Positions 29,368-57,813 are shown, counted from the first letter of the whole stretch. The stretch: 63,981 nt of DNA, filler included, from 6 parts of 6 records of this genome joined end to end with filler, not necessarily neighbours in it, one strand, 5' to 3'. Translations and numbers: made by a program. The notes: a model not told the origin generated them from the letters alone.

Positions 29368-31584
29368 TTAATTGATGATTAATTTTGAAGTAAGTAATTC
29401 TAAGTTTGAAGAGATTTTTAGAATGTAGATACCTTTTTTAGTCACTCTGTTCAATTCTAGAATTCGCTGATTTTGGCCTGCTTTAGTTTCTATAAGATCA
29501 CTTGCCACTAGATTTCCGTCAAGATTATAAACGCCTAATTGCATCTGCCCTCCAAATTTTGACTCAAACTGAATATTAGTCTTTTCCTGGAATGGGTTTG
29601 GGTAAGCTTTTATCGATAAGACAGAGTTCTTTTGATTTTCATTTCTATTTGAAAAGCGAATCTCACTCAGGTTCATAGCTATTAAGCCCTGATTTTGAGA
29701 GGTAAAGGAAAGGATGACCAAATCATCAAGTTTCACATTTTCTGAAAACTCATTTGATCGAAAATTACTCAAGGGTATACTATAGCTTTTGATTTCTTTG
29801 CTTAGGTTAAAAGTATAGTAGTAATGAGCGTCGAAGTTCTCTACTGATTTTTTCACAAAACGTATGGTCATTTCTCCTTGACCGGAAGCTTTAAAATTTA
29901 AGAAGTTGAACTCACTCAAGTCCTCAGGTACTGCCCCTCCTTTTATGGTCTTATACACAGTGGCATAATCAGATCCAGAAGCAGAAAACGCTACATTTCG
30001 TAAAATAGGATAGTCGCCGTCCAAAACTTCAAAATTGTCTGTGTTGCTAATTTGATTTTGAATGATACTACCACCCGTTGGGATGTAATGTGCCCAAATC
30101 CCATCACTTTGATAGAGGTAATCATTTTTGATGCTTTTATCTATCAAACTTATACTTACCTCAGAATAATCTTTTGCATCGATTTCCACTGAAGATGTTC
30201 CCATGGGGGTCAATTCCACCTCCATAGTACTCGTAATCATAGTCTGTGAATTTTCATTTGGTTTGGAAGTAAGTTGGATTGTAGCTGAGGTTTCAAGCGT
30301 TCGGTTCCAGATTTTTAAAGACACCTTGCTTGGATCATTTGTGATTCTATAGGTTTTGCTCACAAAAATTCCCGGTGTTGTTTTAGACACTGTCTGATGC
30401 AGTGATCCGAAGTTTTTCACTTGGGATAAAATATTTTCAATCATCAACTGAAGGAGTTTTCCATCAGCACTCCAAAATTGGAAGTTGTAAAAACTTGGCT
30501 CTGAAACATAATCTTCCAAAAGCCATGCGGATTGCAAATGCATTTCATTCGAAGCTGGAGTAATTCCGATGGAAAAAGAGATTGAATATTCATTTAGGCC
30601 AGAGGTTGGTTTCAGCAAGCTCCTGATCAAATTAAATTCACCAATCTGAATACTGTCAATTGCCAAAATTTCAGCCCCCTTTAACCTATCACACACGTAT
30701 TTGGAGTGCTCGTAAACCTTTTCCGATGTTTTAGTAGCAAAGAAAGTCGCAAGGTTATTTCCTTGATTCAGAAAGTCAACTGATACAACTTCCTCGGCAT
30801 TGGTGATAGCTAACAACTCTTCTGGACTGGTAAGGTACCCCACAAAATTCTCTCCCAGGATTTGTTCATCTGGGATTAAAGAAGAGAGTTCAAATCCGTT
30901 TACTTTAGCTTTTCTATAATTTTTTAGAGTTTCTTTCTCTTTGTAGTTCAAGGTGTTTTTTCCACTGGAGAATCTTTCAAAAACCTGCTCTACCACTGCA
31001 GTACCCAGACTTCTACTTTCCAATCCACCGTCATTTCCAGAGCTTACCCGCAAATTTTCTTCAGAAACTAACTTTACTTCAGCTGATGAGCCCGAAGTCA
31101 ATGGGTAGGTACAGGTGCAATAAGGTAATCCGTCAATTGGGTCTGTTAATTCTAAAGTGATTAGACCTGCGGTGGGAAGGTTATTGTTGTAAAAAGTATA
31201 TTTCACCTCATTTCCATTTGGAATTCCTGGAGGATTAAATGGACTTCCAGATTCATTGTTGCCAAATTCCCAATCTAAGTAAGTATTGCCGTCGGTAGTT
31301 GTGATCCATGATTTAGTCACAACTGGTGGAAAAATGATTGGCTCCGCCCAGCCAAAGGTGAAATTCCCTTGATTTGATTTGGAAAGTGCACTTAGGAAAT
31401 AAATGCTTGCAGGACTGATGTTTGAGGCATATTCAGTAACCTTCTGTCCGTTCCCGTTATTTCTTTTGTAAAGCTCAGGACAACGTCTGTTTCCAACTTG
31501 CTGGCTTAAAGCCATATGACTTATGCTTGTTATTAAAGTCCAAAGCACAATGAAAATTAGTTTGGAAAGTAGTTTTTTTAGCAT
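29368..31584 (-). CDS. Secreted protein with T9SS type A C-terminal sorting domain; possible CBM11/CIA30-like module before the CTD
   Basis: Signal peptide MLKKLLSKLIFIVLW...ALS-QQ; C-terminus IKAYPNPF...VYNLDG...GIYILKI...KLIIN. Confidence 0.85.
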   Translation of the reverse strand: MLKKLLSKLIFIVLWTLITSISHMALSQQVGNRRCPELYKRNNGNGQKVTEYASNISPASIYFLSALSKSNQGNFTFGWAEPIIFPPVVTKSWITTTDGNTYLDWEFGNNESGSPFNPPGIPNGNEVKYTFYNNNLPTAGLITLELTDPIDGLPYCTCTYPLTSGSSAEVKLVSEENLRVSSGNDGGLESRSLGTAVVEQVFERFSSGKNTLNYKEKETLKNYRKAKVNGFELSSLIPDEQILGENFVGYLTSPEELLAITNAEEVVSVDFLNQGNNLATFFATKTSEKVYEHSKYVCDRLKGAEILAIDSIQIGEFNLIRSLLKPTSGLNEYSISFSIGITPASNEMHLQSAWLLEDYVSEPSFYNFQFWSADGKLLQLMIENILSQVKNFGSLHQTVSKTTPGIFVSKTYRITNDPSKVSLKIWNRTLETSATIQLTSKPNENSQTMITSTMEVELTPMGTSSVEIDAKDYSEVSISLIDKSIKNDYLYQSDGIWAHYIPTGGSIIQNQISNTDNFEVLDGDYPILRNVAFSASGSDYATVYKTIKGGAVPEDLSEFNFLNFKASGQGEMTIRFVKKSVENFDAHYYYTFNLSKEIKSYSIPLSNFRSNEFSENVKLDDLVILSFTSQNQGLIAMNLSEIRFSNRNENQKNSVLSIKAYPNPFQEKTNIQFESKFGGQMQLGVYNLDGNLVASDLIETKAGQNQRILELNRVTKKGIYILKISSNLELLTSKLIIN

Positions 31585-31612
31585 GACTCCGATTGTTAAG
31601 TGGTAATACTTA

Positions 31613-31629
31613 TTCAATCTGTAAGCCAA
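31613..31629 (-). promoter_or_regulatory. sigma54-like promoter of the T9SS cargo gene
   Basis: Minus strand TTGGCTTACAGATTGAA (GG-N10-GA), 28 bp before the ATG; IHF-like AATCAATAAGTTG at 31646-31658. Confidence 0.65.
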
Positions 31630-31671
31630 CTCATAAAAACCTTAAAATCAATAAGTTGCATTTGGCACACC

Positions 31672-31715
31672 TTCCATTATTAGGAATATTTGGTGAAATA
31701 TTCCAAAATATGGAA
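31672..31715. promoter_or_regulatory. Tandem palindromic operator pair 1 (putative bEBP enhancer)
   Basis: TTCCATTATTAGGAA (31672-31686) and TTCCAAAATATGGAA (31701-31715). Confidence 0.7.
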
Positions 31716-31720
31716 AATAC

Positions 31721-32212
31721 TTAGTGGTTTTTAAATGTAAAATACTTTTGAAGTAAAAAATTCACTGTCAATACGATGACTGTAGAGAAGATTTTGGCCA
31801 GGGTGGGTTCCATTTCAAAAAATACAATCAATCCTTTGAGGATCAGGTAATCACTGCCAAGGCCTTGCCCAACTACTAATATGTACTTAAATAGTTGTTT
31901 TGTGGTTTTCTTGCCTCCAGAGGGAGCGCTCTTAAAAGCGAAATTTTTACTCAACCAAAACCCTGTAGGAATGGTGACGAAAAAAGCAATAAGTAAGGCA
32001 AGCGTGTAAGAGGCTATTGAGTAGTCAAGTATTACCCAACCTTCTTTAGGAAGGATAAACTCATACAAAACTGCAAATAATAGGATGTTTAAAGCGGTAT
32101 TGATCGCTCCTACAGCCAAATAGGCATAGACATCATAGGCAAGCCATTTTCTGAAAAGAGGATAAAATAGCTGCAGGAAAGCTTCTATCGCCCGGCTAAG
32201 TAGTGAGATCAT
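31721..32212 (-). CDS. GtrA family membrane protein (lipid-P-sugar flippase-like)
   Basis: Four TMs; YLAVGAINT, FWLSKNFAF, AKIFSTVIV..NFLLQKYFTF; ATGA overlap with the GT4 gene. Confidence 0.88.
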   Translation of the reverse strand: MISLLSRAIEAFLQLFYPLFRKWLAYDVYAYLAVGAINTALNILLFAVLYEFILPKEGWVILDYSIASYTLALLIAFFVTIPTGFWLSKNFAFKSAPSGGKKTTKQLFKYILVVGQGLGSDYLILKGLIVFFEMEPTLAKIFSTVIVLTVNFLLQKYFTFKNH

Positions 32213-33390
32213 TTTCTTTGGTTCAAGAGAGTGTGGATGTGGCTTAAGTACCATTGTGCGAGTTCTCCCATAGGTAGCCCTTTGGCGGCTTTGTAGTTTT
32301 GGTCTTCGATCTTCTTACGTTCTTCTGGGTTATCTATCAAGCTAGCAACTGCCTGAGCGAGACTCGCAGCATCATCAGTTTCGAAATAGGCTCCACCATA
32401 TCCTTCTTCGTCTACCACCCGTTCGAGATCATCAATTTTTGGTAGTATGCACGCTCGTCCATAACTTCCTGCCTGATGCAGAATGCCTGAGCTTCCTGTA
32501 GTAGTAGTGTAAGGGAAAATTACAAATGTGCTTTCCCAGAAGATTTGAGAGACCTTTTCCTCCGGGATATATCCGGTGTACTCTACATTGGGTAGATGAG
32601 CATATTTATTTTTTAGGCTGTCGATATAGCCTTTCACGTTGGGATTATCTGTGCCTGCTACGGTGGAGGTGAATTCCAATTCAGGATATTTTTTCTGAAG
32701 AATTTCCATTGCATCTATCATCACCTCAGCTTTTTTGTAGGTACCAAATTTCCCAAAAGCCATCAAGTTGATCTTGTTTGAGCCTTCTGGAACGTAGTTA
32801 CGCTCGGGAAGCTCGAAGTTTCCATGAGGAAGAAGAATCACATTCTCAGCCTTATATTTTTCCTTGAGAATGGTGACATATTGGGAAATCGTAACACCCA
32901 CTAGATCTGCCTTGAGAATGAATTTGGTGAGTTGCTCACCTATCCAAAGGAAAAGATTGCCTTTCAATTTGCTATCAGCCATCCCTATGGTATCCAATTT
33001 TACCGTTTCGGTAATATTATGAAGGATGACTACGGAGGGTATATTCAGCTTTTTAAACATCCAGGGAGTAAGTAAACCTAATGCCGCAGGAATTTTGCCA
33101 GCACCAAAAGTCATGAACTGTAGGTTTAAAATTACTGCGTCTGGAGCCAGCTCTTTTAGCTTTTTCTTCAGATTCAAAACTGTAAACCAGCTATCAAAAT
33201 CCCAACACGGGATAATTTCCAGTCCATCCGTAGCGTACCTGGAATATTGGCTATTGTCCTCCAGATTGTTGGTGAGAATATAGATCTTTTCTATGCCCTT
33301 TTTGCCGATGAAGCTTCGGGAAAGATGGTACCCGTATTCATTAAGGGTCACTTGACTTGGTGGGTAGGGAGTAATGAAGGCTAATTTCAT
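32209..33390 (-). CDS. GT4 family glycosyltransferase
   Basis: ITPYPPS..LNEY, AFGKFGTYKK, IFPYTTTTGSSGILHQA; GT-B fold pattern. Confidence 0.88.
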   Translation of the reverse strand: MKLAFITPYPPSQVTLNEYGYHLSRSFIGKKGIEKIYILTNNLEDNSQYSRYATDGLEIIPCWDFDSWFTVLNLKKKLKELAPDAVILNLQFMTFGAGKIPAALGLLTPWMFKKLNIPSVVILHNITETVKLDTIGMADSKLKGNLFLWIGEQLTKFILKADLVGVTISQYVTILKEKYKAENVILLPHGNFELPERNYVPEGSNKINLMAFGKFGTYKKAEVMIDAMEILQKKYPELEFTSTVAGTDNPNVKGYIDSLKNKYAHLPNVEYTGYIPEEKVSQIFWESTFVIFPYTTTTGSSGILHQAGSYGRACILPKIDDLERVVDEEGYGGAYFETDDAASLAQAVASLIDNPEERKKIEDQNYKAAKGLPMGELAQWYLSHIHTLLNQRK

Positions 33391-33947
33391 AGTGTCGGGG
33401 GTGTGGTTTTTTCCTCTATAAATCTGATGGCATCTAATCTCCAGTTGTCTCCTTGGAATAGAAGGCTAACTGCAATTTTTGCTTCGCTGGTTTGGCTGGT
33501 GTTATCAGGAAACTGATACTGGAATACAGCTAAACTGTCTAGTATATTACATGCTAGTCCGTCTTTTGACCAAGTTTTTATCTGAATAGCATGACTTAAG
33601 TTCGTTCGTCGGATGGGACCGGGTGGGCCTTCTTGATAGTTCTCAGCAAGATTGACGTAGAATCGTTCTGTAAATCGTTCTTTATTGGGCTTAGGGTTAG
33701 AATGCTGATAGAGCTCGTTCAGATGAGCCCAAATTGCTGCATAATCTTCCAAAAGCTTTTCTATTTGCTGTTCAAAAGGAACAATAACTGATTCAATTTC
33801 TAGGTCAATTTGAGGGTTAGAATTAGCTGCAATCGAATCATATCTAAGAAAATAGGGGACATCATCATTTTTTACCTGAAGTCGGGACATGGAGATCAGT
33901 AATGCCCCAACTATCAGTAGAAATCCTAGGAATATCCATCTGGTCAT
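33387..33947 (-). CDS. Hypothetical membrane-anchored protein, probable NTF2-like fold
   Basis: N-terminal TM; helix-helix-strand pattern ending VSLLFQGDNWRLD; 4-bp overlaps at both ends. Confidence 0.7.
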   Translation of the reverse strand: MTRWIFLGFLLIVGALLISMSRLQVKNDDVPYFLRYDSIAANSNPQIDLEIESVIVPFEQQIEKLLEDYAAIWAHLNELYQHSNPKPNKERFTERFYVNLAENYQEGPPGPIRRTNLSHAIQIKTWSKDGLACNILDSLAVFQYQFPDNTSQTSEAKIAVSLLFQGDNWRLDAIRFIEEKTTPPTL

Positions 33948-34765
33948 AGCTTCTGGATAGTTAAGGTTTGAGAATAAATGTGAGCAATTCTTACTTTTAT
34001 TTTACCATTTTCTACTTCGGAGTAGGGTGAAGTCAGAATACTGTAACCATCTTTTACTACTGCTTCAATTCTTTTTTGGTAGTTGTCTTTTTCAAAGAGA
34101 AATAACACGAGAGTACCATCTGCTACCTCGTTTTTATATTGATCTACTAGTGGGCCAGCTTTGAATGTAACCGTGCTTGCATAATCATCAATTGAAATAC
34201 TTAGGGGAATTTCAGTGACAGTTCCAGGGTCTACATAGAAACTGGATTGTCTGCTTGCTGTTATGCCTTTGAATGTTCCTGTTTTTGGATTTAATCCTAT
34301 TGAATTTTCCTTGAAGTATACCCCTTCTTCCAAAACAGATAGGTTACCTGAATGGTCGTAGGAATATAGAATTTGTTGCTGAATCATTGAAGAATCAGTA
34401 TTGACAGTTTTCGGACTTCGCAGATCTACCAAATTGCGCGTTTCTTTAGGGTTTCTGAGATAAATAGGATAAACAAATTGATCCTCTCCTGCCTGAAGCG
34501 TAAGGTAAGCAGAGCCTTCTATTACTCCATTTTTCGGATTGATAGAAATGCTTAATTGTTGCTCATGTTGGGTTACTTCAGGATAAATAACCTGAACTGC
34601 CGTACTCACCCAGGCCTGCCATTCACGTGCTTCTGCCTCAAATAGAAGACTGTCTCGGTTGACCACAAATGTTGTTTTTGGATTCAATATCTCAGGTTTT
34701 GTAACCTTTTCTTGCTGGCAGCCAAAAAGTAAGTTACCTATCATGAATAATAGTAGTCGTTTCAT
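33944..34765 (-). CDS. Hypothetical lipoprotein with Ig-like C-terminal module
   Basis: MKRLLLFMIGNLLFG-C lipobox; LVDQYKNEVADGTLVLF resembles the Big-1 'D..GN.V.DGT.V.F' pattern. Confidence 0.7.
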   Translation of the reverse strand: MKRLLLFMIGNLLFGCQQEKVTKPEILNPKTTFVVNRDSLLFEAEAREWQAWVSTAVQVIYPEVTQHEQQLSISINPKNGVIEGSAYLTLQAGEDQFVYPIYLRNPKETRNLVDLRSPKTVNTDSSMIQQQILYSYDHSGNLSVLEEGVYFKENSIGLNPKTGTFKGITASRQSSFYVDPGTVTEIPLSISIDDYASTVTFKAGPLVDQYKNEVADGTLVLFLFEKDNYQKRIEAVVKDGYSILTSPYSEVENGKIKVRIAHIYSQTLTIQKL

Positions 34766-37700
34766 TGAAGGTAGATTTCTTGAGATAAAAAACAATGAGG
34801 CAATAAGCTGATTCTTTCATTTGGGGAAGGTTGACTTGCTGGTAATTCGTCTAGCATTTGTCTCCTTTGACCGTTAATTTGAAGTTCTATCGGTAGGTGG
34901 GTGAGGACCTTTGAGTTTGAACCTATTTTTTGGAAAGGAATTTCAAAATTACCTTCCAGCCCGCTACGTATAGATTTAGGATAGGTCCATAGGTCTACCT
35001 GAAGGATCCTTCCTAGATCGTCTTTTTCAGAAATAAGTACACCCGGGATAGTTATTTCTACGGTAAAGGGATTTTTCATGGAAGCTTCAAACAGCATTTC
35101 ATCTGGAGTTTCTGTGAGTGTCTTATAGCCTAATTCGCCACCTCTGATATAGCCACGCTCACTGATGTCAGTTTCTAACTCCAGCCTGATTGATGTAATT
35201 TTCTTTTGGTCTTCCAACTCTTGCATTCCCAGTGGTAACTGAAACCAGGTAGAAGCCTTTGGTGCAAGATTGTAATGGAAATTTGTTTTCGGGAAAAATG
35301 TAGCTGAGCTATCATTTTCATAAGTTACCACGGCTTTTAGTGCTAAAGTGATCGGGATATTATCGGCGTTGATCAGCTCTCCGGTAAGGTTATATTCTTC
35401 ACCTACTTGAATCAAATTTGCCTGATAAAATCCAGCAAATGGCTTCTTGATCCGGTCGTCTTTTACGGTTGGAAAACTACTGATTTTACGCTTCCCCATT
35501 TTCTTGAATAGTGTGTAATTGTAAGTAATTACTTGTTCTTCAGGGATTTCCAAATCAAGTTTAGGAGGGGTGATGTACCATTTGGACCCTAGTTTTTCCA
35601 AGTTCATCACTTCTTGCTTCTCCCTATTGCCTAAAGAAGTTCTCCAAGTGCTTAGGACGTTCATTTTGGCTGAATTTTCCTCTAGCTCTAGCGTATCTAT
35701 TTTGAGTGCATCTAGCTTTGCAAAAGATGGCAATAAACCTCCATCGCTTACTGATTTTTCCAGTAAATATTGATCAAGACTATAGGAAGGCCCGGGGGTA
35801 AAAAATTGAAATGCTTCTTCAAATCGCTGGAAATCTAAATCATCAAAATGGGAATAAATTGTAGTCGTAGGGTCCTTTTGCTCATCGATCAGTAAAAGCT
35901 CATAGATCTGAAAGACCAAAAAGCTGCTGAACATAACAAAGGGCAGCCATGCTGTCAAATAAATTACCGGTTTGGGATATATGCTCACTTCTTCATCTGC
36001 TACCAGCTCTTCCTGAGTTTTTTTGAAATAGAATAAGTAAACAAAAGTGAGACCTATAGCAACCAGTAAAGTAGATATGGGGAGAATTCCCCAAGCTTTT
36101 TTAAGCAAAGGATTTAGCTCTTTCGGTTTGATGGGTTGTATGGTGGAAATATTGCCTTTTTCCCAAACCATGATCCCATTTTCTAAACTAATGGTTCTAT
36201 TCCAGCCAGTGTAAAAGAGGAGAGGATCATAATACCTGTCATTGCTGAACACGTATTTCAGCTGGTATTTTTCTGCTACGGTGAGGAAGTCGTTCAATGA
36301 AGCCATGCCTTCTTCCATTAGGTATTTTGCATTTTCCAATCTTTCCACTGCGCGGGAAGTCATTTCGGGAAGCCTTCTGGCGGAGTGGTAGTTGCCATCA
36401 ATTGTAGCTGCCAGAGTATTGGAAGAAAGCCAGGCCATTTGGTCCCCGAAGCCAAGCGTCAGAAAGCGCCAACGCATGTGATCGTCCCGGTTTAGAAAAT
36501 TGATGATGGGCTCAATCTCCACAGATTTGGGCTGTAGCGGGCGAAAACTAGCCAAATGAAAAATGTATATGATAAATAGCAGATAGGAAAAACCGCTCAC
36601 TCCTGAGATAAGGAAGTGTGAAGTTTCCCCGTATTTTTTTGTCCAATAATTTTTGATGTTTCCGCCTAAAAAGGAAACCAGCAAATGACTCATGTATGGT
36701 ATGGCGATGATAGAAGCCCAAAATCCAAAACGATCCAGGGTCAAGATATTGAATGCGGCTTCGCCTAGCATAAGTCTGGGAAGGGGGGTGGTGCCGCCAC
36801 TTCCAAGTAAAAGGCAGATATAGAAGGAAACTGCCCATCCTAGGTGTCTTTTCTTTCGGGTGATCAAAAAGGAGATCGCCGGAAGCAAGGCGAAAATCAG
36901 TAGTAGAGGGATGATATAAAAAACCAATCCTGAGCTGGTAACCTCGAGAAAATTATCTCTCGATCCATGAGGAATTGATACTTGACTGATAGGGTCCGTT
37001 CGACTCCAATACCAATACGGGAAAATCAGCGTAATAGTCAAGATGATTGTTGTAACACCGAAGAGTAGTATTCGCCACATATTACCCCAAATGACTTTTA
37101 GCAAATCAGGGAAAAACCTTCCAAATAGATTCTTTTTTCCCAACTCTGGGTGTCTGTCTATCAGCGCCATTAGTACTGTAGGAGCTATAAAAAACACCAT
37201 TCCAAAAATAGCAGTAACATGATGGGAGCTCACGACTACGCCGATAAAAGCCCAAGCCATGATTAGGTACCTCCAATCAGATGTTTTGAAATATTGGTAA
37301 AGAAAAGGTAATGAGTTTAGCAAGAAAGCCAGTCCTGTGAGCGTGGGTACTTGACCATAAACGTGAAGTGTCTCTACTAGCGAGCTCAATACCACTGCCA
37401 GAATAGCTGCGACTCCAGCAGTCTGCTTCGAATAGAACATCTTGGTGAATCGATAGATTCCGATGATCAAAGCTTCAAAAATCACTATTGAATAGATGCT
37501 AAAGGCAATTTTCAGCGGAAATACTTTACTGATCAGAGCTAGAAGCTGGTGAACTAAAGGTGGATAGCTGATGGTCAGAAAACCCGTATACCAGCGATAT
37601 TCCCACGGCTCAAACCAAAACCTGGAATAATGATCCGCGAAAAACATATGCACATAGGCGTCATAGGTCTGGGGCAAGGTGAAGTAGACAATTATCCCAT

Positions 37701-38888: not shown

Positions 38889-38895
38889 AAGATTA

Positions 38896-39777: not shown

Positions 39778-39807
39778 CCCAGTTGTTTTTCGGTGTGCCA
39801 ACATTTA

Positions 39808-39823
39808 TTCAAATCATAAACCA
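39808..39823 (-). promoter_or_regulatory. sigma54-like promoter of the glycosylation operon
   Basis: Minus strand TGGTTTATGATTTGAA (GG-N10-GA); IHF-like AATCAGCAACTTA on the minus strand at 39830-39842. Confidence 0.55.
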
Positions 39824-39876: not shown

Positions 39877-39910
39877 TTCCATATAATGGAAAAAATTCCA
39901 AAAAATGTAT
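39877..39910. promoter_or_regulatory. Tandem palindromic operator pair 2
   Basis: TTCCATATAATGGAA (39877-39891) and degenerate TTCCAAAAAATGTAT (39896-39910). Confidence 0.65.
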
Positions 39911-41307: not shown

Positions 41308-41342
41308 TTCCAGAATCTGGAATGATCTTCCAGTATTAGGAA
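41308..41342. promoter_or_regulatory. Tandem palindromic operator pair 3 (upstream of the H-NOX operon)
   Basis: TTCCAGAATCTGGAA (41308-41322) and TTCCAGTATTAGGAA (41328-41342); weak sigma54-like TTGGCTTGATTTTTCT at 41405-41420. Confidence 0.7.
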
Positions 41343-41450
41343 TTTGAAGTGGTTTTATAGTTAGTAATCCTTAGTAAATACCCAAATAGGAGGGGGTAGT
41401 GGACTTGGCTTGATTTTTCTTTAGGTAAATGAAATACAACCTAAAGCACT

Positions 41451-41993
41451 ATGTACGGATTAGTAAATAAATCAATTCAGGAACTCATTACCACTAATTT
41501 TGGAGAGGAGAAGTGGGATATTATCAAATTAAACAGTGGGATAGAAATTGATTATTTCATCAGTACTGAGCCCTATGATGATTCAATAACTTTTAAATTA
41601 GCACAAGCTGCCTCGGAAGAATTAAATGTCTCAGTAGATGAAATTTTGTTTGTCTTTGGAGAATGGTGGATTTTAAAAACCGGCAATGAGAAGTATGGAG
41701 GCTTAATGAAAGCTGGCGGGAATAATCTAAAAGAGTTTTTAATTAACCTACCACTCTTTCATGATCGAATTATGTTGCTTTATCCAAAGCTGACTCCTCC
41801 GGAGTTTGAAATAGCAGAGATTGAGGAGAATTCATTAGTACTATATTACATTTCAAAACGAGATGGATTGGTGGGTTTTATGAAAGGATTACTTTCAGGA
41901 TTAGGGAAATTGTTTGAAACCCCTGTAGAAATTGACCATATTAACAGTAAAGAAAATGGACATGATAATGAAGTTTTTAAAGTAAGCTGGTGA
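41451..41993 (+). CDS. H-NOX (heme nitric oxide/oxygen binding) protein
   Basis: MYGLVN start, YDD, proximal His104, Pro117, Y133-x-S-x-R137 heme motif. Confidence 0.95.
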   Translation: MYGLVNKSIQELITTNFGEEKWDIIKLNSGIEIDYFISTEPYDDSITFKLAQAASEELNVSVDEILFVFGEWWILKTGNEKYGGLMKAGGNNLKEFLINLPLFHDRIMLLYPKLTPPEFEIAEIEENSLVLYYISKRDGLVGFMKGLLSGLGKLFETPVEIDHINSKENGHDNEVFKVSW

Positions 41994-44900
41994 GCAAGGA
42001 TGATTTAAATATTGAAGTAAAAAAAAGTCATATTGATCGGACTTTTCCTTTTCACTTCGCGGTTTTAAAGAGTGGAACTATTGGTTTTTTTGGTTCTAGT
42101 TTTCTAAAAATGATGGGCGATGTCAAAGGGAAATTATTTAGTGACATTTTTCTTATTGAGCGCCCGCGAGATACGAAGTTCGAGTTTGATCAACTCGCAA
42201 AAACACAGCAAAAAACTTTCTTATTAAGGACAAAGTCATCTAACTCCACTCTTTTTAGGGGACAGTTCGAATATTTTGAAGATAATGACATTCTGCTATT
42301 CCTTGGTTCACCTTGGTTCAGTTCTATCGAAGAGTTAGTGGCTAACGATTTGTCAATCTCTGACTTTGCGCCCCTAGATCCTTTAGTTGACCTCCTGCAT
42401 TTAATCAAAAATCAAGAGTTGGTTACTTCTGACTTGAAAGAACTCCTAGGGACGATTACTCAGCAAAAAGAGAGGCTTGAAAACTTGTCGTATGTCGCTA
42501 GTGCAAATGCAGACGGGATCATATTCACAGATGAGAATGGCTTAATAACTTATGTGAATAAAGGATATCTGGATGAAACTGGGTACCAAATAGATGAGGT
42601 GCTAGGTAAAACTCCCATTGAAATCGGTATTGGAGATCAAACTGAAAAGCCTGAAATCCATAAAATGATAGATGCTTTTTATAATAAAGAGCAATTTAAA
42701 ATAGAACTAAAGCATTACCGCAAGGATGGTACTTGGTTTTGGTCTAGAGTTAAAGGGCAGGTGGTTCTTGATAAAAAAGGTAATTTTCTACACTTCTTCA
42801 CGCTGTTGGAAAATGTCACGGAAGAAAAAGAATCCAAGAATAAGATTAAAGTATTTGAAGATACCTTTAGACAGGTATTGGAATTTTCTGGGGATAATAT
42901 TTGGGAACATGATTTTAGGACTGGAAAGACAAGTTTTTCTAATCAGGCAAAAAACTTCCTAGGTCTTAAATTTGACCAAAACACAAATCTTGAAGATGTG
43001 TGGTATGCTCACGTATACTCTGAAGATTTGATTTTACTAGAAGAAAACGATAAGAAATACAAAAACGGGGAGATTTCATCACATCAGCTAGAATACAGGA
43101 TGCTGCATGAAGATGGAAGTATAAAATGGGTAAAGGACAGAGGAATCGTAATTGAAAAGGATAAAAATGGGGTTCCTCTTAAAATTATAGGAACTCATTC
43201 TGATATCACTGATCAGAAAGACTCAGAAAAAGAGCTGGTAAACCTCAATACTAAATTGGGTAGCGTTTTAAATGAATTGAGAGATGTAATCTGGTCAGTC
43301 AGCTATCCTAATATGAACAGTATATTTTTTACACCTTCAGCCGAAGATCTTTTCGAGTTGCACCTGGACACCATGATGAATGATAAATCCTGGTGGGAAA
43401 AATCAATTCATCCAGAGGATAAACATGTCTTAAGCGATATCATTAAGGAGGTAGGTATTAATCATGAATATGTCAAAGAATACCGCATTGTTACTACATC
43501 CCAGAAGGTAAAATGGGTTCAAAATAAAGGGAAGCTAATTTTTGAGGATGGCATACCAGTAAGAATGAATGGGATTTTGGTGGATATCACCGAGCGTAAA
43601 AAGACGGAAGCACTCATAAAATCCCAAGAACAACTCAAAAATATTTTAATCGACATCTCCTCGACCTATATCAATATTGATTTAGAGGAGGTGGATATGA
43701 AAATAAATGCTTCATTGGAGAAAATCGGAGAGTTTGTCAATGCTGACCGTGCTTATCTTTTTTCCTATGATTTAAATGCTTTGACATGCTCCTGCACACA
43801 TGAGTGGTGTGCCCCTGGAATATCCCAAGAAATAGAAAATACTCAAAACGTTCCTTTGGAATATGTTCCTCAATGGTTTGAAGTCCATTCTAAAGGAGAA
43901 TCCTTCTTAGTGGAAGATGTCTCCTTGTTAAAAGAACAGGGGATGGATGGTTTATATGATGTTCTTGAGCCTCAAGGGATCAAAAGCCTAATCACAATTC
44001 CGATGATGATTAAAGACGAACTTTTGGGTTTTGTCGGCTTTGATTCAGTTAAAAAACAACATTCATACTCCAAAAAAGAAGTTGAGTTATTATTTGTATT
44101 TGCACAAATGCTAGTCAATGTGCAAAAGAGAAAGCAATCCGAAAAAAGACTCTTCCAACAGGAAGAAAAATTCAGAAATATTATTTCAAATATGAATTTG
44201 GGTCTTTTGGAAGTAGACCTTGAAGAGAATGTACTCCATGCAAATCAAACATTCTGTAAAATGGCTGATCGTAAATTGGAGGAGTTGGTAGGGAAGAAGG
44301 CTACAGATTTACTTTTGAATCCTGGAGATAAAGAAAGGCTCTTACAAAAGTCAGAAAGCAGAAAAACCGGGATTTCAGATTCATATGAGTTAAAGTACAA
44401 GAGGCCAAATGGAGAATATAGATGGTGGTTTATCAGTGGAGCGCCTAATTACAACGATAACAATGAGCTAATCGGCTCTATAGGTATACATCTTGATATC
44501 ACCGATCAGAAGAGGTTGGAAGAGGAATTAATCAGGCAAAAAGAGGAGGCGGAAAAGTCGAAACGAGCAAAGGAAATTTTCTTTGCAAATATGAGTCATG
44601 AGATAAGAACGCCAATGAATGCTATTGTAGGAATGGGTGAGCAATTGGCGAAAATCAGTCAAAATGATCAACAGACGAAATACATAAAAGCTATCCAAAA
44701 TTCCGCAAGCCATTTGATGGTCGTTATCAAAGATATTTTGGATTTGTCCAAACTCGAAGCCGGTAAGATGACTATTGAATCAATAGGATTTAAACCTAAA
44801 AACATTGTGGACCATGTGTTTGCCATGATGAATGACAAGGCAGAGATGAAAGGGTTGGATTTCGCTATTTTAAATTTCGACAGCAGAATTAAAGAGGTTT

Positions 44901-46066
44901 TGATAGGGGATCCTATTAGAATTAGCCAAATCCTGCTTAACCTTCTGTCTAATGCTGTAAAGTTTACTGAAAAAGGCAAAGTATACATTACATGTGATCT
45001 TATTTCTGAAAACAATCAGAAGCAGGAAATCAAGTTTACCGTAGTAGATACGGGAATAGGCATGGAGGAGTCTTTTATCAAAAGTAATTTCGAGAAATAC
45101 GTCCAGGAGGATACCACTATAACAAGAAAATATGGAGGTACTGGCTTAGGGTTGAGTATATCAAAGGAGCTTACCCAGCTTATGGGAGGGGAAATGCAGA
45201 TTGAATCCGAAAAAGGAGTTGGAACAAAAATTTCAGTGAAATTAGCGTTACTAAAAGGCAGCTCGAATGATCTTCCAAAGGATCTTCCTGTTTCCATAGA
45301 CTATGGGATGCTGAAAGGAAAGAAAGTGTTAATCGTAGATGATAATGAATTCAACCGACTTCTGGCAAGCACTATTTTGGAGCAGCATGATATTATTACT
45401 ACCTCTGCTGTCAATGGACAAGACGCCGTAGATTTATTAAGGGAAGAAGTTTTCGATATAGTTTTGATGGACGTTCAGATGCCAATAATGGATGGGATTA
45501 TGGCTACCAAAATAATAAGAGAAGACTTAAAGCTTGAAGTGCCAATCGTTGCTTTGACTGCTTTTGCGATGAAAGGAGATATGGAGAAATACCTTTCTAA
45601 AGGAATGAATAGTTTTTTGGCTAAACCATTTAAGGAGAGTGAGCTACTGCATATTGTTTCCCAATTGTTAAAAGGCAAGCCAGTTCAGAATTACATCGGC
45701 AGTTTGAAGGTGAAAGAGGAAAAGGAGAGATATTCTTTAGATGAGTTAAAGGCTATTTCTAAGGGTAATTCGGAGTTCATGGCGAAAATGATCGAAACAT
45801 TCCATACAAGCATACTGGAGTCGGTAGACCAGGCTGTTGAAGCTTTTGAACGGGAAGATTTTGATCAAGTAAGAAAACTGGCTCATAAGATCAAGCCCTC
45901 TATTAAGATGTTGAATATTCATGAAATCATTGACGAAGTCGTTGAAGTAGAGCTGGAAGTAATGAGCCAAAAACGGTCTGAAAGAATGGTTTATTTAATG
46001 GGTCATATCGATCAAGTTCTCAAGTGGGTAGCTAAGGACATGAAATCAATTAACAATGAAAAGTAA
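41990..46066 (+). CDS. Cytoplasmic hybrid histidine kinase: HNOBA, multiple PAS, GAF, PAS, HisKA/HATPase, REC, Hpt
   Basis: N-terminal FPFH...LFLGSPW...SDFAPLD (HNOBA); PAS/PAC repeats; NADRAYLF (GAF); ANMSHEIRTP, NLLSNAVKFT, GGTGLGL; LMDVQMP; AHKIKPS; GTGA overlap with H-NOX. Confidence 0.93.
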   Translation: MSKDDLNIEVKKSHIDRTFPFHFAVLKSGTIGFFGSSFLKMMGDVKGKLFSDIFLIERPRDTKFEFDQLAKTQQKTFLLRTKSSNSTLFRGQFEYFEDNDILLFLGSPWFSSIEELVANDLSISDFAPLDPLVDLLHLIKNQELVTSDLKELLGTITQQKERLENLSYVASANADGIIFTDENGLITYVNKGYLDETGYQIDEVLGKTPIEIGIGDQTEKPEIHKMIDAFYNKEQFKIELKHYRKDGTWFWSRVKGQVVLDKKGNFLHFFTLLENVTEEKESKNKIKVFEDTFRQVLEFSGDNIWEHDFRTGKTSFSNQAKNFLGLKFDQNTNLEDVWYAHVYSEDLILLEENDKKYKNGEISSHQLEYRMLHEDGSIKWVKDRGIVIEKDKNGVPLKIIGTHSDITDQKDSEKELVNLNTKLGSVLNELRDVIWSVSYPNMNSIFFTPSAEDLFELHLDTMMNDKSWWEKSIHPEDKHVLSDIIKEVGINHEYVKEYRIVTTSQKVKWVQNKGKLIFEDGIPVRMNGILVDITERKKTEALIKSQEQLKNILIDISSTYINIDLEEVDMKINASLEKIGEFVNADRAYLFSYDLNALTCSCTHEWCAPGISQEIENTQNVPLEYVPQWFEVHSKGESFLVEDVSLLKEQGMDGLYDVLEPQGIKSLITIPMMIKDELLGFVGFDSVKKQHSYSKKEVELLFVFAQMLVNVQKRKQSEKRLFQQEEKFRNIISNMNLGLLEVDLEENVLHANQTFCKMADRKLEELVGKKATDLLLNPGDKERLLQKSESRKTGISDSYELKYKRPNGEYRWWFISGAPNYNDNNELIGSIGIHLDITDQKRLEEELIRQKEEAEKSKRAKEIFFANMSHEIRTPMNAIVGMGEQLAKISQNDQQTKYIKAIQNSASHLMVVIKDILDLSKLEAGKMTIESIGFKPKNIVDHVFAMMNDKAEMKGLDFAILNFDSRIKEVLIGDPIRISQILLNLLSNAVKFTEKGKVYITCDLISENNQKQEIKFTVVDTGIGMEESFIKSNFEKYVQEDTTITRKYGGTGLGLSISKELTQLMGGEMQIESEKGVGTKISVKLALLKGSSNDLPKDLPVSIDYGMLKGKKVLIVDDNEFNRLLASTILEQHDIITTSAVNGQDAVDLLREEVFDIVLMDVQMPIMDGIMATKIIREDLKLEVPIVALTAFAMKGDMEKYLSKGMNSFLAKPFKESELLHIVSQLLKGKPVQNYIGSLKVKEEKERYSLDELKAISKGNSEFMAKMIETFHTSILESVDQAVEAFEREDFDQVRKLAHKIKPSIKMLNIHEIIDEVVEVELEVMSQKRSERMVYLMGHIDQVLKWVAKDMKSINNEK

Positions 46067-46550
46067 GGAGGAAATATTTGAATACGCAGAATCTCTTGTC
46101 CTAAACCTAGGATTTGAAATTAAAGAACAGGACAGAATGCGTCCCTGGGGCGGTTTTCTTGTCCTGAATGAAAGCCAAGCCTCGCAATTTGCCAAGGAGT
46201 TTTTCCCAGAAGAGGATTTTGAATCCTTGAAGATTTCCGAAAAGCTGAGTCCAAAGATTTTATTGGTGGCTCCTAACAAACGGCTGAGTTGGCAATATCA
46301 TTTTAGAAGAGCTGAGATTTGGAGATGTATTGCGGGTGAAGTGGCAGTTGCCAAAAGTGATAATGATGTTGAAAAAGAAATCATTACTCTTTCCAAGGGA
46401 GATAAAGTTAAACTGAAACAAGGGGAAAGGCATAGACTGATTGGATTGGATGATTGGGGAGTTGTAGCTGAAATCTGGCAACATACAGATGCTTCCAATC
46501 CGTCGGACGAAGAAGATATAGTTAGGCTGGAAGATGATTTCGGCAGGTGA
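46056..46550 (+). CDS. Stand-alone type II phosphomannose isomerase-like cupin
   Basis: RPWGGF, LSWQYHFRRAEIW, HRL, EEDIVRLEDDFGR match the C-terminal domain of bifunctional PMI-GMP. Confidence 0.85.
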   Translation: MKSKEEIFEYAESLVLNLGFEIKEQDRMRPWGGFLVLNESQASQFAKEFFPEEDFESLKISEKLSPKILLVAPNKRLSWQYHFRRAEIWRCIAGEVAVAKSDNDVEKEIITLSKGDKVKLKQGERHRLIGLDDWGVVAEIWQHTDASNPSDEEDIVRLEDDFGR

Positions 46551-46566
46551 ACTAGCCAGGATATGA

Positions 46567-46601
46567 TTCCAATTTCTAGAAATTAATTCCAAATACTGGA
46601 A
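46567..46601. promoter_or_regulatory. Tandem palindromic operator pair 4
   Basis: TTCCAATTTCTAGAA (46567-46581) and TTCCAAATACTGGAA (46587-46601); sigma54-like TTGGTCTCAATTTGGAA at 46652-46668. Confidence 0.68.
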
Positions 46602-46607
46602 TACTGT

Positions 46608-46652
46608 AACTAAAAAAGTGCCTTATAGCTATTCTAAGGCACTTTTTTAGTT
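46608..46652. terminator. Perfect 18-bp inverted repeat, probable bidirectional terminator
   Basis: AACTAAAAAAGTGCCTTA-N9-TAAGGCACTTTTTTAGTT. Confidence 0.75.
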
Positions 46653-46691
46653 TGGTCTCAATTTGGAATATAGAGATAGAAATTGGAAAAC

Positions 46692-47078
46692 ATGAAAAAC
46701 ATAAAAATTTTACCAGCCTTTATAGTAGATGACGATCCTTTCTGGACTGCTATCCTAAAGCAAATCCTCACCGAGCTAGGATTTACGAAAATCCACACAT
46801 TTGAGGACGGTGTAGATTGTCTAAATCACATCCACCTCAATCCAGGATTGATTTTTTTGGATTACCAGATGGAAAATTCAAATGGACTGGAAATCCTCCA
46901 GGAAGTGAAAAATTACTTTCCAGGAATTGAAGTTGTTTTTTGCACGGCCTTAGAAAGTCTTGAGGTGGCAATTGCCGCCATAGAACACGGGTCAGTGGAG
47001 TATTTGCTGAAAAGTAACGTCACTGAGGAGTTGGTGAAAGATATAGTAAACAACTTCCAATCCGCCAAACTAGCCTAA
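46692..47078 (+). CDS. Single-domain response regulator
   Basis: IVDDD...FLDYQM...CTA...YLLKS receiver motifs. Confidence 0.9.
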   Translation: MKNIKILPAFIVDDDPFWTAILKQILTELGFTKIHTFEDGVDCLNHIHLNPGLIFLDYQMENSNGLEILQEVKNYFPGIEVVFCTALESLEVAIAAIEHGSVEYLLKSNVTEELVKDIVNNFQSAKLA

Positions 47079-47091
47079 ACCACAAGTCTCC

Positions 47092-47814
47092 ATGCCATTT
47101 ACATTTTCACATCCAGCAGCTGTTCTTCCTTTTACTAAGCCTAACAAGCGTCTTTCTCAGACGGGATTGGTGATAGGAAGTCTTGTGCCTGATCTGGAGT
47201 TTTACTTCAAACTAAAACTTGGTGAAAATATAGGGCATACACTTCCCGGGGTGATATTATTCGATCTTCCGGTGGCGCTACTGGTCGCTTTTCTATTTCA
47301 TGGTTTGGTGAAAAAACCATTGTATAACGCAAGTCCTGCTAAGATTCAGATGAAAGTCGCAGGGCAGGTCAACTTGGATTGGAATAAATTCTTTACGCAA
47401 AATTGGACCTGGGTAGTGATGTCTATAACAATTGGAATCGCTACTCATTTGATTTTGGACGGTATGACTCACTATGATGGTTGGGTGGTGGCTTTGTTGC
47501 CTTTATTACAGCATGAGATTTTCACTATTGCGGTATATGATCTATTACAATATGGTCTTAGTGTCCTAGGGTTGGTCATGGTGGCCGGGGTACTTATTTC
47601 ATTGGAATCCATGCCAGAGGCTAATGCTGCCAAGTTTGGGAAAAACAGATTTTGGTTATTGGTGTCAATAGGATTCACAGCAGCAATCCTGTCAAGAATT
47701 TATTTGTTTCCCGAGTTTATTTCCTTTTGGGATGTGTTTATGATGTGTGTAGGGGGGCTATTTTATGGGTTGATCTTAGCTGCTTTGATTTTAAGGATTG
47801 CAGACAATTCACGT
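47092..47814 (+). CDS. DUF4184 family membrane protein (putative metal-dependent hydrolase); no stop codon, frame stays open to 49782
   Basis: MPFTFSHPAAVLP, GSLVPD, GHT, THLILDGMTH motifs; end coordinate approximate. Confidence 0.8.
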
Positions 47815-48147
47815 TTAAGCCGTCATAGCAAGAGCAATAAACTTATCAATTCCCGAGGTACTAATCCAGGGTTCAAAAGTAGAGCCCTTTTGATAGAGAA
47901 GAATGAATTTAATGGAAAGTTCGGTCAAGGTATAGTGCAGGTGAATGACTTCATTGACAAACCCCAAATCGTTGTCGGTCAAGTTTCTGATGTCCAGGTA
48001 AACCAAATTTGTATCACTGGCAGTAATTTCTGGAAGTCTGCTTCTGAGAAGTTCAGTCGCATTGCCTTTAGCCTCTCCTCTTATTTGAACTTTAAGCGCG
48101 GGTTTGTTTTCTCCTGTGATCAAAAATTCGCTGATCTGAATATCCAT
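47815..48147 (-). CDS. STAS-domain protein (anti-anti-sigma-like), nested antisense in the 47092-49782 ORF
   Basis: KVQIRGE..ELLRSRL..LVYLDIRNLTDNDLGFVNEVIHLH..KFILL..ISTSGIDKFI follows the STAS consensus; phospho-acceptor Ser replaced by Leu. Confidence 0.75.
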   Translation of the reverse strand: MDIQISEFLITGENKPALKVQIRGEAKGNATELLRSRLPEITASDTNLVYLDIRNLTDNDLGFVNEVIHLHYTLTELSIKFILLYQKGSTFEPWISTSGIDKFIALAMTA

Positions 48148-49782
48148 ATGAATAAGAATTTGAAGAAATATATTAATTCTCCAGTTAAACTTATACTCTT
48201 TTTAGGATTAATATCTATGCCTTTGTTTGCCTTAGGTCAAAGCGAAGCCTTAGATCCAGCAAAGCGTGAGGGGTTTATTCAAGAAGCAACTCAATTGAGA
48301 AGTAAGGAAAATTATGTTGGCGCGATTGCTCAGTTGGATAGCATTCTAGTTCATAATCCTCTGGATGCACAAATTTTACTTTTCAAAGGAGACCTTTGTC
48401 TTCAGAATCAGGATTTTGCTCAAGCCGTGGAGGTTTATTCTTCGTTGGTGCCATTAGAATTTGAAAGCACAATAGTTCGGGTAAACTTGTCCTATGCACT
48501 TTTTATGAGTAAAAAGCCATCCAAAGCGCTGGAAGCTGCTTATAGTGCGTGGAACCAGGATCAGGAAAACAAAAGTGCTGTGGTCAACTATTTCAATGCG
48601 CTTCTGTGGAATGTAAAAACTAAAGATGCTGAAGCGTTTTTAAATGATAATGCCGGCTTCGTAGATGAAGATCAGGTTTTGGTGATGAAAGCCAGATTAT
48701 ACACTACAGGCGGTGCTTATACCCAAGGTCAACTTTATTACGATTCCTTAATCCAAAGATTTCCAAAAGCTCCTTATATACAGGAGTTTACCGAGGTGCT
48801 CGCTGGGAAAAAACAGTGGGATAAGGCAGCTAAGATCCTGAACGATTATGAAGATGAATTGTCAGATTCCCAAAAGGAAAAGCTGGGTGGCCTCCTAAGT
48901 CAGGGAGATAAGCAAATTGCCGGAATTGCAGTAGGGTACTTTGCGGATGTGGCTAAAAACACAAGAACAGAGCAATCTATTTTCTGGCAAAACCAATTAA
49001 GTGCTCCTTTACAAGTAAATGTAAGAGCGGGTGCAAATCAGGTAAAAGCACCGGAAGGTCAGTTGACTAAGACAAAGTTTATTGCTGCAGGAGTAGGAAT
49101 CAATTGGAGCCAGGCCTTACAAAGTAGTGCTGAGATTGTTGCGCAGCAAGTTTCCCCTGAAGAAGGCGATTCTTTTACAGGAGTGACTGGAAAATTTGAA
49201 ACTAAATATCAGCCCAATGATAGAAGGATGGTTGGGCTTACCTATAGTTCTGAGATACTAAATTTTACAGCAGATTTGCTAGGAAAAGATATCAGAAGTC
49301 AAAGTCTGGGGTATGTGACTCATATTATGTTTGGCGGTAAAACAGGCTTCTTTTCTCAGGGAAATGTAGGTTTTCTAAATGATCAGAATTCCAGACTTCA
49401 GTTTTTCGGTTCAGTTTACAGGTTGTTGAGAACAGAGCCTACTTTGAAAACTGGGTTGAACTTTTCTGCACTCAGCTTTAGTGATTCTGAGACCACGTTG
49501 TATTTCGCACCTGATCAGTTTTTAAGCACTGAAGTATTTGTTGACTATAGTACTCCATTGCCTTTGGTGTCAAAGATGGCGCTCAAAATTCAAGCTGCGG
49601 CAGGATTGCAACAAATAGAAAAGCAAGGATGGGATCCATCTTTTAGAGCGCAAGCTGAGATTAATTATAGAGTTAATGGATTTGATTTTGGCCTCAACGG
49701 GCAATTCAGCAATGTGGCAGCTGCCTCAGGAACGGGCTACAGCTTTCATTATATCACACTTAAAGTGCTAAAAAGTTTCTAA
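48148..49782 (+). CDS. Secreted TPR plus outer-membrane beta-barrel protein
   Basis: Own signal peptide MNKNLKKY...LFALG-QS; TPR helices; amphipathic beta strands with LYFAPDQF; terminal Phe. Confidence 0.75.
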   Translation: MNKNLKKYINSPVKLILFLGLISMPLFALGQSEALDPAKREGFIQEATQLRSKENYVGAIAQLDSILVHNPLDAQILLFKGDLCLQNQDFAQAVEVYSSLVPLEFESTIVRVNLSYALFMSKKPSKALEAAYSAWNQDQENKSAVVNYFNALLWNVKTKDAEAFLNDNAGFVDEDQVLVMKARLYTTGGAYTQGQLYYDSLIQRFPKAPYIQEFTEVLAGKKQWDKAAKILNDYEDELSDSQKEKLGGLLSQGDKQIAGIAVGYFADVAKNTRTEQSIFWQNQLSAPLQVNVRAGANQVKAPEGQLTKTKFIAAGVGINWSQALQSSAEIVAQQVSPEEGDSFTGVTGKFETKYQPNDRRMVGLTYSSEILNFTADLLGKDIRSQSLGYVTHIMFGGKTGFFSQGNVGFLNDQNSRLQFFGSVYRLLRTEPTLKTGLNFSALSFSDSETTLYFAPDQFLSTEVFVDYSTPLPLVSKMALKIQAAAGLQQIEKQGWDPSFRAQAEINYRVNGFDFGLNGQFSNVAAASGTGYSFHYITLKVLKSF

Positions 49783-49813
49783 AGAGTACCCGCTTAAGTT
49801 GTTTAATTCACCC

Positions 49814-49844
49814 AAGTCCCTTTCCATTTGGAGAGGGCTTTTTT
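49814..49844 (+). terminator. Rho-independent terminator ending the cluster
   Basis: AAGTCCCTTTCC-ATTT-GGAGAGGGCTT then TTTT. Confidence 0.7.
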
Positions 49845-57802: not shown

Positions 57803-57813
57803 GGCTGAAACCC

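Follow-up and report, generated by a model that had tools for sequence, protein, structure and literature searches.

The window analysed in this study is a stretch of 63,981 nucleotides (nt) made up of several concatenated contigs, and its subject is a gene island of a marine Bacteroidota bacterium at positions 29368-49844, which lies on the contig spanning 28320-55922 (27.6 kb, approx. 39% G+C) and carries candidate gas-sensing genes next to candidate glycan genes. The original prediction had described a 20-kb block with a sensing and a biosynthetic arm, and all the genes named in it were recovered by gene and domain calls. The 1007-amino-acid (aa) membrane protein of the island has an exact counterpart (100% identity) in Algoriphagus winogradskyi DSM 15360 (locus L001), in which the whole gene order is the same, and the genome-wide tests were carried out on related genomes such as this one.

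The plus-strand genes begin with a sigma-54 activator (39955-41307), in which the domain search identified a receiver (REC) domain with D54, an AAA domain with the GAFTGA motif and a helix-turn-helix (HTH) domain. The next gene encodes an H-NOX protein (41451-41993; PF07700, E 2.5e-47) with H104, P117, Y133-x-S135-x-R137, the distal F143 and W73. It is followed by the gene of a soluble hybrid kinase (41990-46066) with the domain order HNOBA-PAS(4)-GAF-HisKA(H870)-HATPase-REC(D1161)-Hpt(H1299), no transmembrane segment being found in the protein. Further downstream a PMI-type cupin (46056-46550; PF01050, E 1.7e-11), a single-domain response regulator with D60 (46683-47078) and an 896-aa frame (47092-49782) are located. 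The latter consists of a DUF4184 membrane domain (residues 1-231), 111 codons antisense to a STAS gene, a signal-like segment, TPR repeats and an outer-membrane beta-barrel. The STAS gene had been assigned to the sensing arm; it proved to be real, and it lies on the minus strand (47815-48147), nested antisense inside the 896-aa open reading frame (ORF), whose DUF4184 domain and its junction with the TPR-barrel had been overlooked.

The divergent minus-strand genes start with a soluble GT2 glycosyltransferase of the ArnC/GtrB type, i.e. a putative polyprenol-phosphate sugar synthase (38896-39804; ArnC and sll0501/GtrB matches with E 6e-7 to 1e-5), in which no transmembrane segment was found and whose true start is probably the ATG at 39777. 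ManC (37803-38921), the mannose-1-phosphate guanylyltransferase half of a GMP/PMI enzyme, matched positions 4-347 of TIGR01479 (E 1.9e-91, below the equivalog cut-off), and the cupin matched positions 352-466, so that the two correspond to the halves of this bifunctional model. Behind ManC lie the 1007-aa protein (34762-37785), which according to a structure model and its fold matches comprises a GT-C glycosyltransferase (residues 1-590), an NTF2-like domain and two beta-sandwich domains, a lipoprotein with a conserved lipobox Cys (33944-34795), a membrane-anchored protein labelled as NTF2-like in the first reading (33387-33947), a GT4 glycosyltransferase (32209-33390; PF00534/PF13692), which is the most conserved gene of the core (39-44% identity to Deinococcus homologues), and a GtrA-family flippase (31721-32254; PF04138, E 1.3e-21). 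The last gene on this strand (29368-31629) encodes a type-A cargo of the type IX secretion system (T9SS; Por_Secre_tail, E 1.6e-11), a probable surface adhesin or matrix protein. Since its listed TTG start overlaps the promoter, the ATG at 31584 is probably the true one. The cargo gene differs from locus to locus, and its best Atlas match, a DUF4114-T9SS cluster (0.85), is a lead only. The 4-bp overlaps mentioned in the first description were confirmed from the coordinates at four junctions, namely H-NOX/kinase, lipoprotein/NTF2, NTF2/GT4 and GT-C/lipoprotein, the last one only if the in-frame ATG of the lipoprotein is used.

An ammonium transporter gene (28320-29117), cut by the contig end, is found downstream of the island; it is adjacent in L001, L003 and L036 too and marks one border. 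The other contigs of the window (1-28219 and 56023-63981) have a G+C content of 52-64% and unrelated genes, e.g. a DctB/DctD-like pair and a sulfite-reductase-like gene, and appear to come from other organisms.

Species genomes were scanned for relatives of the 1007-aa protein, and 611 coding stretches were obtained; the best 80 of the 611 gave 62 loci, and the locus counts refer to this selected set. Clade A (45 loci, at least 54% identity) comprises Cyclobacteriaceae, Spirosomataceae, Chitinophagaceae, Sphingobacteriaceae and others, and clade B (17 loci, approx. 40% identity) mostly Flavobacteriaceae. Among the 32 clade-A loci with at least 7.5 kb of upstream DNA, GT2 was present in all, the activator in 26, H-NOX and ManC in 25 each and the cupin in 10; where the downstream DNA was sufficient (41 loci), the lipoprotein, the NTF2 protein and GT4 were always present and GtrA was found in 40. 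None of the 15 comparable clade-B loci had the activator, H-NOX, ManC or the cupin, and of the metagenome loci of at least 19 kb, mostly belonging to clade B, one in 37 had H-NOX. Few genomes carry the island, namely 3 of 301 in the class and 9 of 251 in the family. In the 123 genomes of the genus Algoriphagus, GT-C and STAS were each detected in 16 and H-NOX in 15, and all 15 belong to the 16 genomes with GT-C; the single GT-C genome without H-NOX is a 510-contig assembly. As judged from gene content, the sensor and sugar genes are all-or-none across the genus. The expected co-occurrence of the two arms in related genomes therefore held within Algoriphagus; it did not extend to clade B, nor to two genomes in which the sensor stands beside a Wza/Wzy locus.

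In three Segetibacter metagenome-assembled genomes (MAGs) the activator and H-NOX occur together on a contig other than that of the sugar locus. No close H-NOX was found in the genomes of L015, L018, L026, L028, L030, L033 and L039, most of which are MAGs. The pairwise identities of the activator and GT-C were correlated (Spearman 0.71 for 23 loci, 0.77 for 91 non-Algoriphagus pairs), a relation confounded by kinship and no proof of co-evolution. A remnant island at 8981-12738 of L099 (G477:C30) has kept REC, H-NOX, GT2, a shortened ManC and the operators described below, the activator, kinase and GT-C being missing nearby. In L006 (18490-23000) the island adjoins genes which, by eye, resemble a nitrous-oxide reductase cluster (nosZ, nosL, nosD, nosF, nosY); L007 and L034 have ABC genes similar to these, and the nos adjacency may be a mere insertion site.

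Exact TTCC-N7-GGAA palindromes occur six times in the 27.6-kb contig, where 200 simulations gave a mean of 0.875 and a maximum of 3. Each of the six falls in one of four intergenic regions, in agreement with the shared operator motif originally noted. Operator palindromes are located upstream of the cargo gene (31672-31686 and 31701-31715) and before the GT2 operon (39877-39891, with a weaker second copy 19 nt away), and tandem operators are found before hnox-kinase (41308-41342, 20-nt spacing) and before the REC operon (46567-46601). By its position the operator would serve four transcription units of the island. Canonical sigma-54 promoters carry GG at -24 and GC at -12 (TTGC), ten bases apart. 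The cargo gene has a sigma-54-like -24/-12 site (GG-N10-GA; 31615-31628, minus strand, found with the genome-wide composite pattern in L001, its position counted by hand), and between this and the operator there is a perfect match (31646-31658) to the IHF consensus. The sigma-54-like promoter of the GT2 operon (39810-39823, minus strand, likewise counted by hand) stands 53 nt from the operator, and its -12 element reads TTGA, not TTGC. A candidate hnox promoter with a weak -12 lies at 41406-41419, and no clean -24/-12 site was found for the REC operon. A sigma-70 promoter scan stayed at the chance level (44 found, 50 expected).

The GT2 upstream regions of 58 loci were examined for the operator together with a TGG-N8-TT(A/T)(G/C/T) candidate, permitted at 40-95 nt. 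Both were present in 24, the operator only in 2 and neither in 32, and in 22 of the 24 the candidate promoter stood 52-54 nt downstream of the operator; IHF-like sites were seen in many of the GT2 spacers. All 17 clade-B regions and 7 of the 31 with an activator in the locus were among those having neither. In the L001 genome the composite operator-promoter pattern matched three times, two of the matches being the GT2 and cargo promoters, and in four other genomes 3-8 times each, with one or two matches in the island (reversed control: 0-1). Of the 30 loci with an activator, 23 had tandem operators, all of them intergenic, compared with 2 of the 32 loci without it; the genomes of both of these carry the activator and H-NOX elsewhere, and one of the two matches lies inside a coding region. 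The operator pair travels with REC where the REC unit was relocated, and it still precedes the gene of the FIST protein where that was inserted.

In clade B a Wzx-like flippase replaces GtrA, the lipoprotein homologue has Ig domains (Invasin/Big_1), and the NTF2 protein of the island matches the N-terminal part of a protein with a GH5/GH2-type barrel. A REC domain is fused to the N-terminus of GT2 in L050 (8568-9752) and in five other clade-B loci, an arrangement which suggests phosphorylation control of the first sugar step. The single REC of clade A is closer to the REC of the activator than to this fused one, and a functional REC-GT2 link in the island is only a lead. GT-C is also encoded on four Deinococcus plasmids, and in the two inspected it is preceded by flippase, GT2, GT4, STAS, PP2C phosphatase and kinase genes; the core of Deinococcus KNUC1210 additionally has GH5, MBOAT, AlgX and AlgF genes. 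On a Deinococcus aquaticus plasmid (L216, 11866-23075) there are two paralogous GT-C genes, and a lipoprotein-like gene comes after each of them; this stretch also encodes a fused GT2-GT4 and STAS/PP2C partner-switch proteins, and it is flanked by GGDEF genes.

The sensor genes occur without GT-C as well. In G314 and G411 the activator-H-NOX-kinase genes precede, in this order, an operator, a gene of a 1537-aa FG-GAP T9SS protein, a further operator, REC and a Wza/Wzc/Wzx/GT4/Wzy locus, in which the operator is repeated. On the evidence of gene order the sensor cassette is portable and the two arms are separable modules. Inside a Wzy-type locus L115 (12404-14740) encodes a 778-aa protein with a thymidylate-kinase-like C-terminus and an operator of its own. 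H-NOX genes of 38-45% identity in five other family members are found in unrelated contexts.

The model of the GT-C domain (pLDDT 96) resolved residues 413-553, which had been left unresolved in the first full-length model. Its best structural match was STT3B (Z 20.2, root-mean-square deviation 4.0, 462 residues aligned), followed by AglB (Z 15.9), PglB (15.7), Pmt4 (15.4) and ArnT (14.5) and also by DPY19 and AftA; the top 20 matches were GT-C enzymes or GT-C-fold subunits of the GPI transamidase. D42 in the first outer loop, the Asp expected for the fold, is conserved in at least 90% of the rows. Thus, as far as can be judged from the model, the 1007-aa protein, first described as GT-C-like, is a GT-C fold closest to the oligosaccharyltransferases. 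Residues 633-742 gave NTF2-like matches. When the GT-C alignment profile was compared with solved sequences, no glycosyltransferase and only one chance match was obtained, and a profile search collected 1055 relatives at E ≤0.001, of which few are named (including Caldilineaceae and Acidimicrobiia).

Since STT3B, AglB, PglB and Pmt4 are the best structural matches, and since a T9SS gene has the operator or stands in the locus in many cases, GT-C could, under the same regulation, be a protein glycosyltransferase that works like the oligosaccharyltransferases or Pmt, with the T9SS cargo, the lipoprotein or further proteins of the envelope as its substrates. We consider this unlikely. The WWD motif was absent in 90 of 90 GT-C rows, the stretch corresponding to it by eye reading GFGDQ, and the cargo is variable or missing, with one D-(S/T)-x site. 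The TPR-barrel has an aromatic C-terminus and gave a weak BcsC-C match (E 4e-4, 20 bits, cut-off 23.5); together with the hydrolase (GH5) and acetylation genes it suits a polymer better, and these features favour an exported polysaccharide over protein glycosylation. A little less probable still is a GtrABC/ArnT-like three-component system, which would add single sugars to an envelope polymer (lipopolysaccharide, capsule or exopolysaccharide made elsewhere). The genes for it are present: GT2 is ArnC/GtrB-like, ArnT is among the structural matches of GT-C, and GT2, GtrA and GT-C form the textbook triad, as outlined in the available part of PMC13390465. The locus of the island encodes no processive synthase or Wzy. 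However, such a function would leave the conserved GT4, the lipoprotein, the NTF2/GH5 protein and the TPR-barrel unexplained, and clade B and Deinococcus use an oligosaccharide flippase in place of GtrA.

The residues H104, P117, Y133, S135 and R137 and the distal F143 of H-NOX were invariant in 27 of 27 rows, and the protein thus has the proximal His, the YxSxR motif and the conserved Pro of the gas-sensor family. The closest solved structure is Nostoc Alr2278 (E 3e-46), in which M144 aligns with F143. O2-binding H-NOX proteins have a distal Tyr, e.g. Tyr140 in the Caldanaerobacter protein; because of the non-polar distal Phe and the lack of the distal Tyr, the sequence predicts binding of nitric oxide (NO) or CO and not of O2, and the NO-type residues to this extent support the first reading. 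The GAFTGA motif of the activator (at 221) was intact, as had been noted, in 27 of 28 rows; D54 and the Walker A/B motifs are kept and the recognition helix is unchanged in the rows shown. With its AAA+ domain, arginine finger and HTH the protein has the features of sigma-54 enhancer-binding proteins, and rpoN is present in the L001 genome. In 14 loci a FIST protein with both N and C FIST domains is encoded after the activator, and the two tested failed the NosP equivalog (64 bits, cut-off 450). The circuit could also respond to a signal other than NO, i.e. CO, haem, redox or O2 tension perceived by H-NOX, FIST or PAS/GAF: the kinase contains a GAF domain besides its four PAS stretches, the FIST proteins are far below the NosP cut-off, and L012 and L015 retain the kinase and the activator without H-NOX. 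This seems improbable to us in view of the invariant haem ligands and F143 and of a Nostoc H-NOX as the closest solved relative.

In Algoriphagus and the close relatives L108 and L110 the frame antisense to STAS was open and linked DUF4184 to the barrel in 17 of 17 copies, where approx. 84 stops were expected from local codon use; duplicate loci and the frameshift-ridden assembly L134/L135 were excluded from this count. L036, a complete-genome record with frameshifts, probably sequencing errors, in most island genes, was also left out. The copies are related, hence the per-copy probabilities of an open frame (0.002-0.005) are not multipliable. In 19 of the 20 other loci the codon-aligned antisense frame over STAS contains one or more stops; in L011 (17731-18165), the sole non-Algoriphagus locus with a stop-free frame, this is joined neither to DUF4184 nor to the barrel. 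In 13 non-Algoriphagus loci STAS lies in inverse orientation between DUF4184 and the barrel, which there have stops and frames of their own, and Pfam-positive STAS relatives are co-oriented with their neighbours in 7 loci. In the codon analysis of 16 copies (the near-duplicate L130 was dropped) none of the 211 Leu codons was TTA or CTA and none of the 130 Ser codons was TCA. The four-fold sites were only 42% identical (controls 35-36%), and the antisense peptide was poorly conserved (41%, compared with 68% for STAS). Since 4 of the 16 copies lack ATG, GTG and TTG alike within the 15 codons that follow STAS, the barrel seems to have no start of its own in these.

The simplest reading of these patterns is selection for read-through, by which a DUF4184-linker-signal-TPR-barrel polyprotein would be made and cut at the internal signal; alternatively, ribosomes might be kept on the message to avoid polarity. 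Two other explanations were rejected: STAS as a shadow frame, because in other loci it gives a Pfam match and runs in the direction of its neighbours, and because the third-position divergence lies in its frame, and the 896-aa ORF as a sequencing accident, because all copies counted were open. Phosphorylatable anti-anti-sigma STAS proteins have a Ser in a D-x-S-G motif. This Ser is absent from the STAS copies of the window and of Algoriphagus, where the motif reads DLGF, whereas DLSG is retained in most of the other relatives. Bacteria are known to have antisense genes under selection, as stated in the available part of PMC8850804.

On balance, and with moderate confidence, we interpret the locus as an accessory island making a surface or matrix glycan under gas control, in which the NO signal, its direction, mannose and the product are inferred. 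Ferrous H-NOX would bind NO and dock on the HNOBA domain of the kinase, and phosphate would pass from H870 through D1161 and H1299 to D54 of the activator and D60 of the single REC. The phosphorylated activator would open the sigma-54 promoters of the glycan operon, the T9SS cargo, the REC-DUF4184-barrel unit and, as a positive feedback, hnox-kinase. By analogy with Vibrio fischeri NO would inhibit the kinase and turn the matrix off, a direction to which we give a slight preference. GT2 would load a hexose, probably mannose supplied by ManC/PMI, onto undecaprenyl phosphate, GT4 would extend the loaded sugar or build the acceptor, and GtrA would act as the flippase. In the periplasm GT-C would add the sugar to a polysaccharide under construction, which the lipoprotein/NTF2 scaffold would hold and the TPR-barrel would export. 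In Algoriphagus the barrel would be translated as a DUF4184 fusion across the antisense STAS and freed at the internal signal sequence.

The co-occurrence in the genus, the shared operator and the fixed promoter geometry argue for a co-inherited and co-regulated unit and support the direct sigma-54 output to the glycosylation and T9SS genes which had been predicted. A chance neighbourhood of signalling and glycosylation operons with no regulatory link, to which the occurrence of each arm without the other in other lineages might point, is very improbable in the face of these three observations and of the operator retained where the regulators moved to another contig. Several findings nevertheless weigh against gas-controlled glycan production as laid out here. 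The hnox and REC promoters are weak or missing, and the seven activator-bearing loci mentioned above have no operator (≤1 mismatch) within 500 nt of GT2. In the -12 element (n=24) TTG is followed 16 times by A, 4 times by T, 3 times by G and only once by C, while GG, the spacing and TTG are retained. L018, L026, L028 and L030, clade-A loci with upstream DNA, have no activator in the locus and no close H-NOX in the genome (three are MAGs), and related genomes are non-independent samples. The best fold match of GT-C is to enzymes of protein N-glycosylation, and the GH5 barrel is lost in clade A. Finally, ManC and the cupin are accessory, with the counts given above; the originally claimed mannosylation, which rests on these two, could not be upheld in general, and mannose is plausible as the sugar in clade A only.

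A wider proposal may be put forward tentatively, although as a whole we think it rather doubtful. The core would be an undescribed class of exopolysaccharide pathway, distinct from the Wzy-, ABC- and synthase-dependent ones: a GT-C resembling the oligosaccharyltransferases would join polyprenol-linked sugars into a chain in the periplasm, and the chain would leave through a TPR-barrel. It would span Bacteroidota, Deinococcus, Chloroflexota and Actinomycetota, and in Bacteroidota it would be coupled to a portable sigma-54 cassette which senses NO and has a promoter variant of its own. The exporter of Algoriphagus would be an inner-/outer-membrane polyprotein with a linker read from the strand opposite a functional STAS gene.

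No description of this locus, this GT-C cluster, DUF4184 or the STAS/896-aa pair was found in the open-access texts, taken without their supplements, and Algoriphagus is not named in the available part of a sigma-54 regulon survey (PMC12316311). Going by the sequences, the regulatory logic would be a known one, and the new part would lie in the uncharacterised glycan machine, the promoter variant and the nested gene under selection. The island would represent a compact NO-to-matrix circuit for Bacteroidota. That the cluster has no GGDEF/EAL gene, as first noted, is in itself little informative, since five of five Algoriphagus genomes searched had no GGDEF match and so show no diguanylate cyclase (the search did not include EAL). 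The predicted operator and the sigma-54 promoter variant are directly checkable, and the island is present in named culture-collection strains. The uncharacterised, cross-phylum GT-C pathway may be a further route to build and export polysaccharide. The STAS gene would be an exceptionally clear bacterial example of an antisense gene nested completely inside another, the opposite strand being kept stop-free by selection without amino-acid conservation.

Among the known systems, three-component glycosylation (GtrABC, ArnC/ArnT; PMC13390465, in the part available) shares with the island a polyprenol-phosphate sugar synthase, GtrA and GT-C in one operon. The island differs from it in the extra conserved GT4, lipoprotein, NTF2(/GH5) protein and TPR-beta-barrel, and in the Wzx used as flippase in clade B. 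With STT3, PglB and AglB the GT-C of the island shares superposable membrane and periplasmic domains (Z 15.7-20.2) and the conserved Asp42 in the first outer loop, but it lacks WWD, is only approx. 10% identical, has HH at the expected DxD-type motif (by eye) and possesses extra NTF2-like and beta-sandwich domains. The synthase-dependent exporters BcsC, PgaA and PelB consist of TPR repeats followed by an outer-membrane barrel. The likeness of the island to them lies in the TPR-barrel with its aromatic C-terminus and in the hydrolase and acetylation genes beside homologous cores; in contrast to them it has no processive synthase in the locus, and its BcsC-C match is below the cut-off. In Myxococcus xanthus, according to the available part of PMC12802240, a single-domain response regulator accompanies a polysaccharide pathway in the EpsW-EpsZ system, as it would in the island; the island has no phosphoglycosyl transferase.

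The closest precedent is found in V. fischeri, and on its account the original statement that no characterised system of this architecture is known goes too far. As described in the available parts of the papers, NO-bound HnoX inhibits HahK, which acts via SypF on SypG and the syp locus (PMC12369376, PMC8738867), SypG is a sigma-54 activator of syp (PMC10162802), and SypA is a STAS protein required for biofilm (PMC4517449). The island differs from this circuit in several respects. Its regulators are all encoded together, the kinase carries an Hpt of its own and an HNOBA domain, the -12 element is non-canonical, and the operator is not the SypG site quoted in PMC10162802. No SypE-like kinase/phosphatase is encoded in the locus, nor was any match to the SpoIIE/anti-sigma kinase families found among the window proteins. 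The output consists of GT2, GT4, GtrA, GT-C, the TPR-barrel and a T9SS cargo, and the likeness does not rest on any sequence comparison with the Syp proteins. Common to the V. fischeri circuit and to the one predicted for the island are an NO-type H-NOX beside a hybrid kinase, a REC-type sigma-54 activator at the end of a phosphorelay, a polysaccharide locus which this activator transcribes directly by way of repeated sites upstream, and a STAS protein tied to the locus, with no cyclic di-GMP step. By this analogy, and with no claim that it belongs to the same system, the island would work like the V. fischeri circuit.

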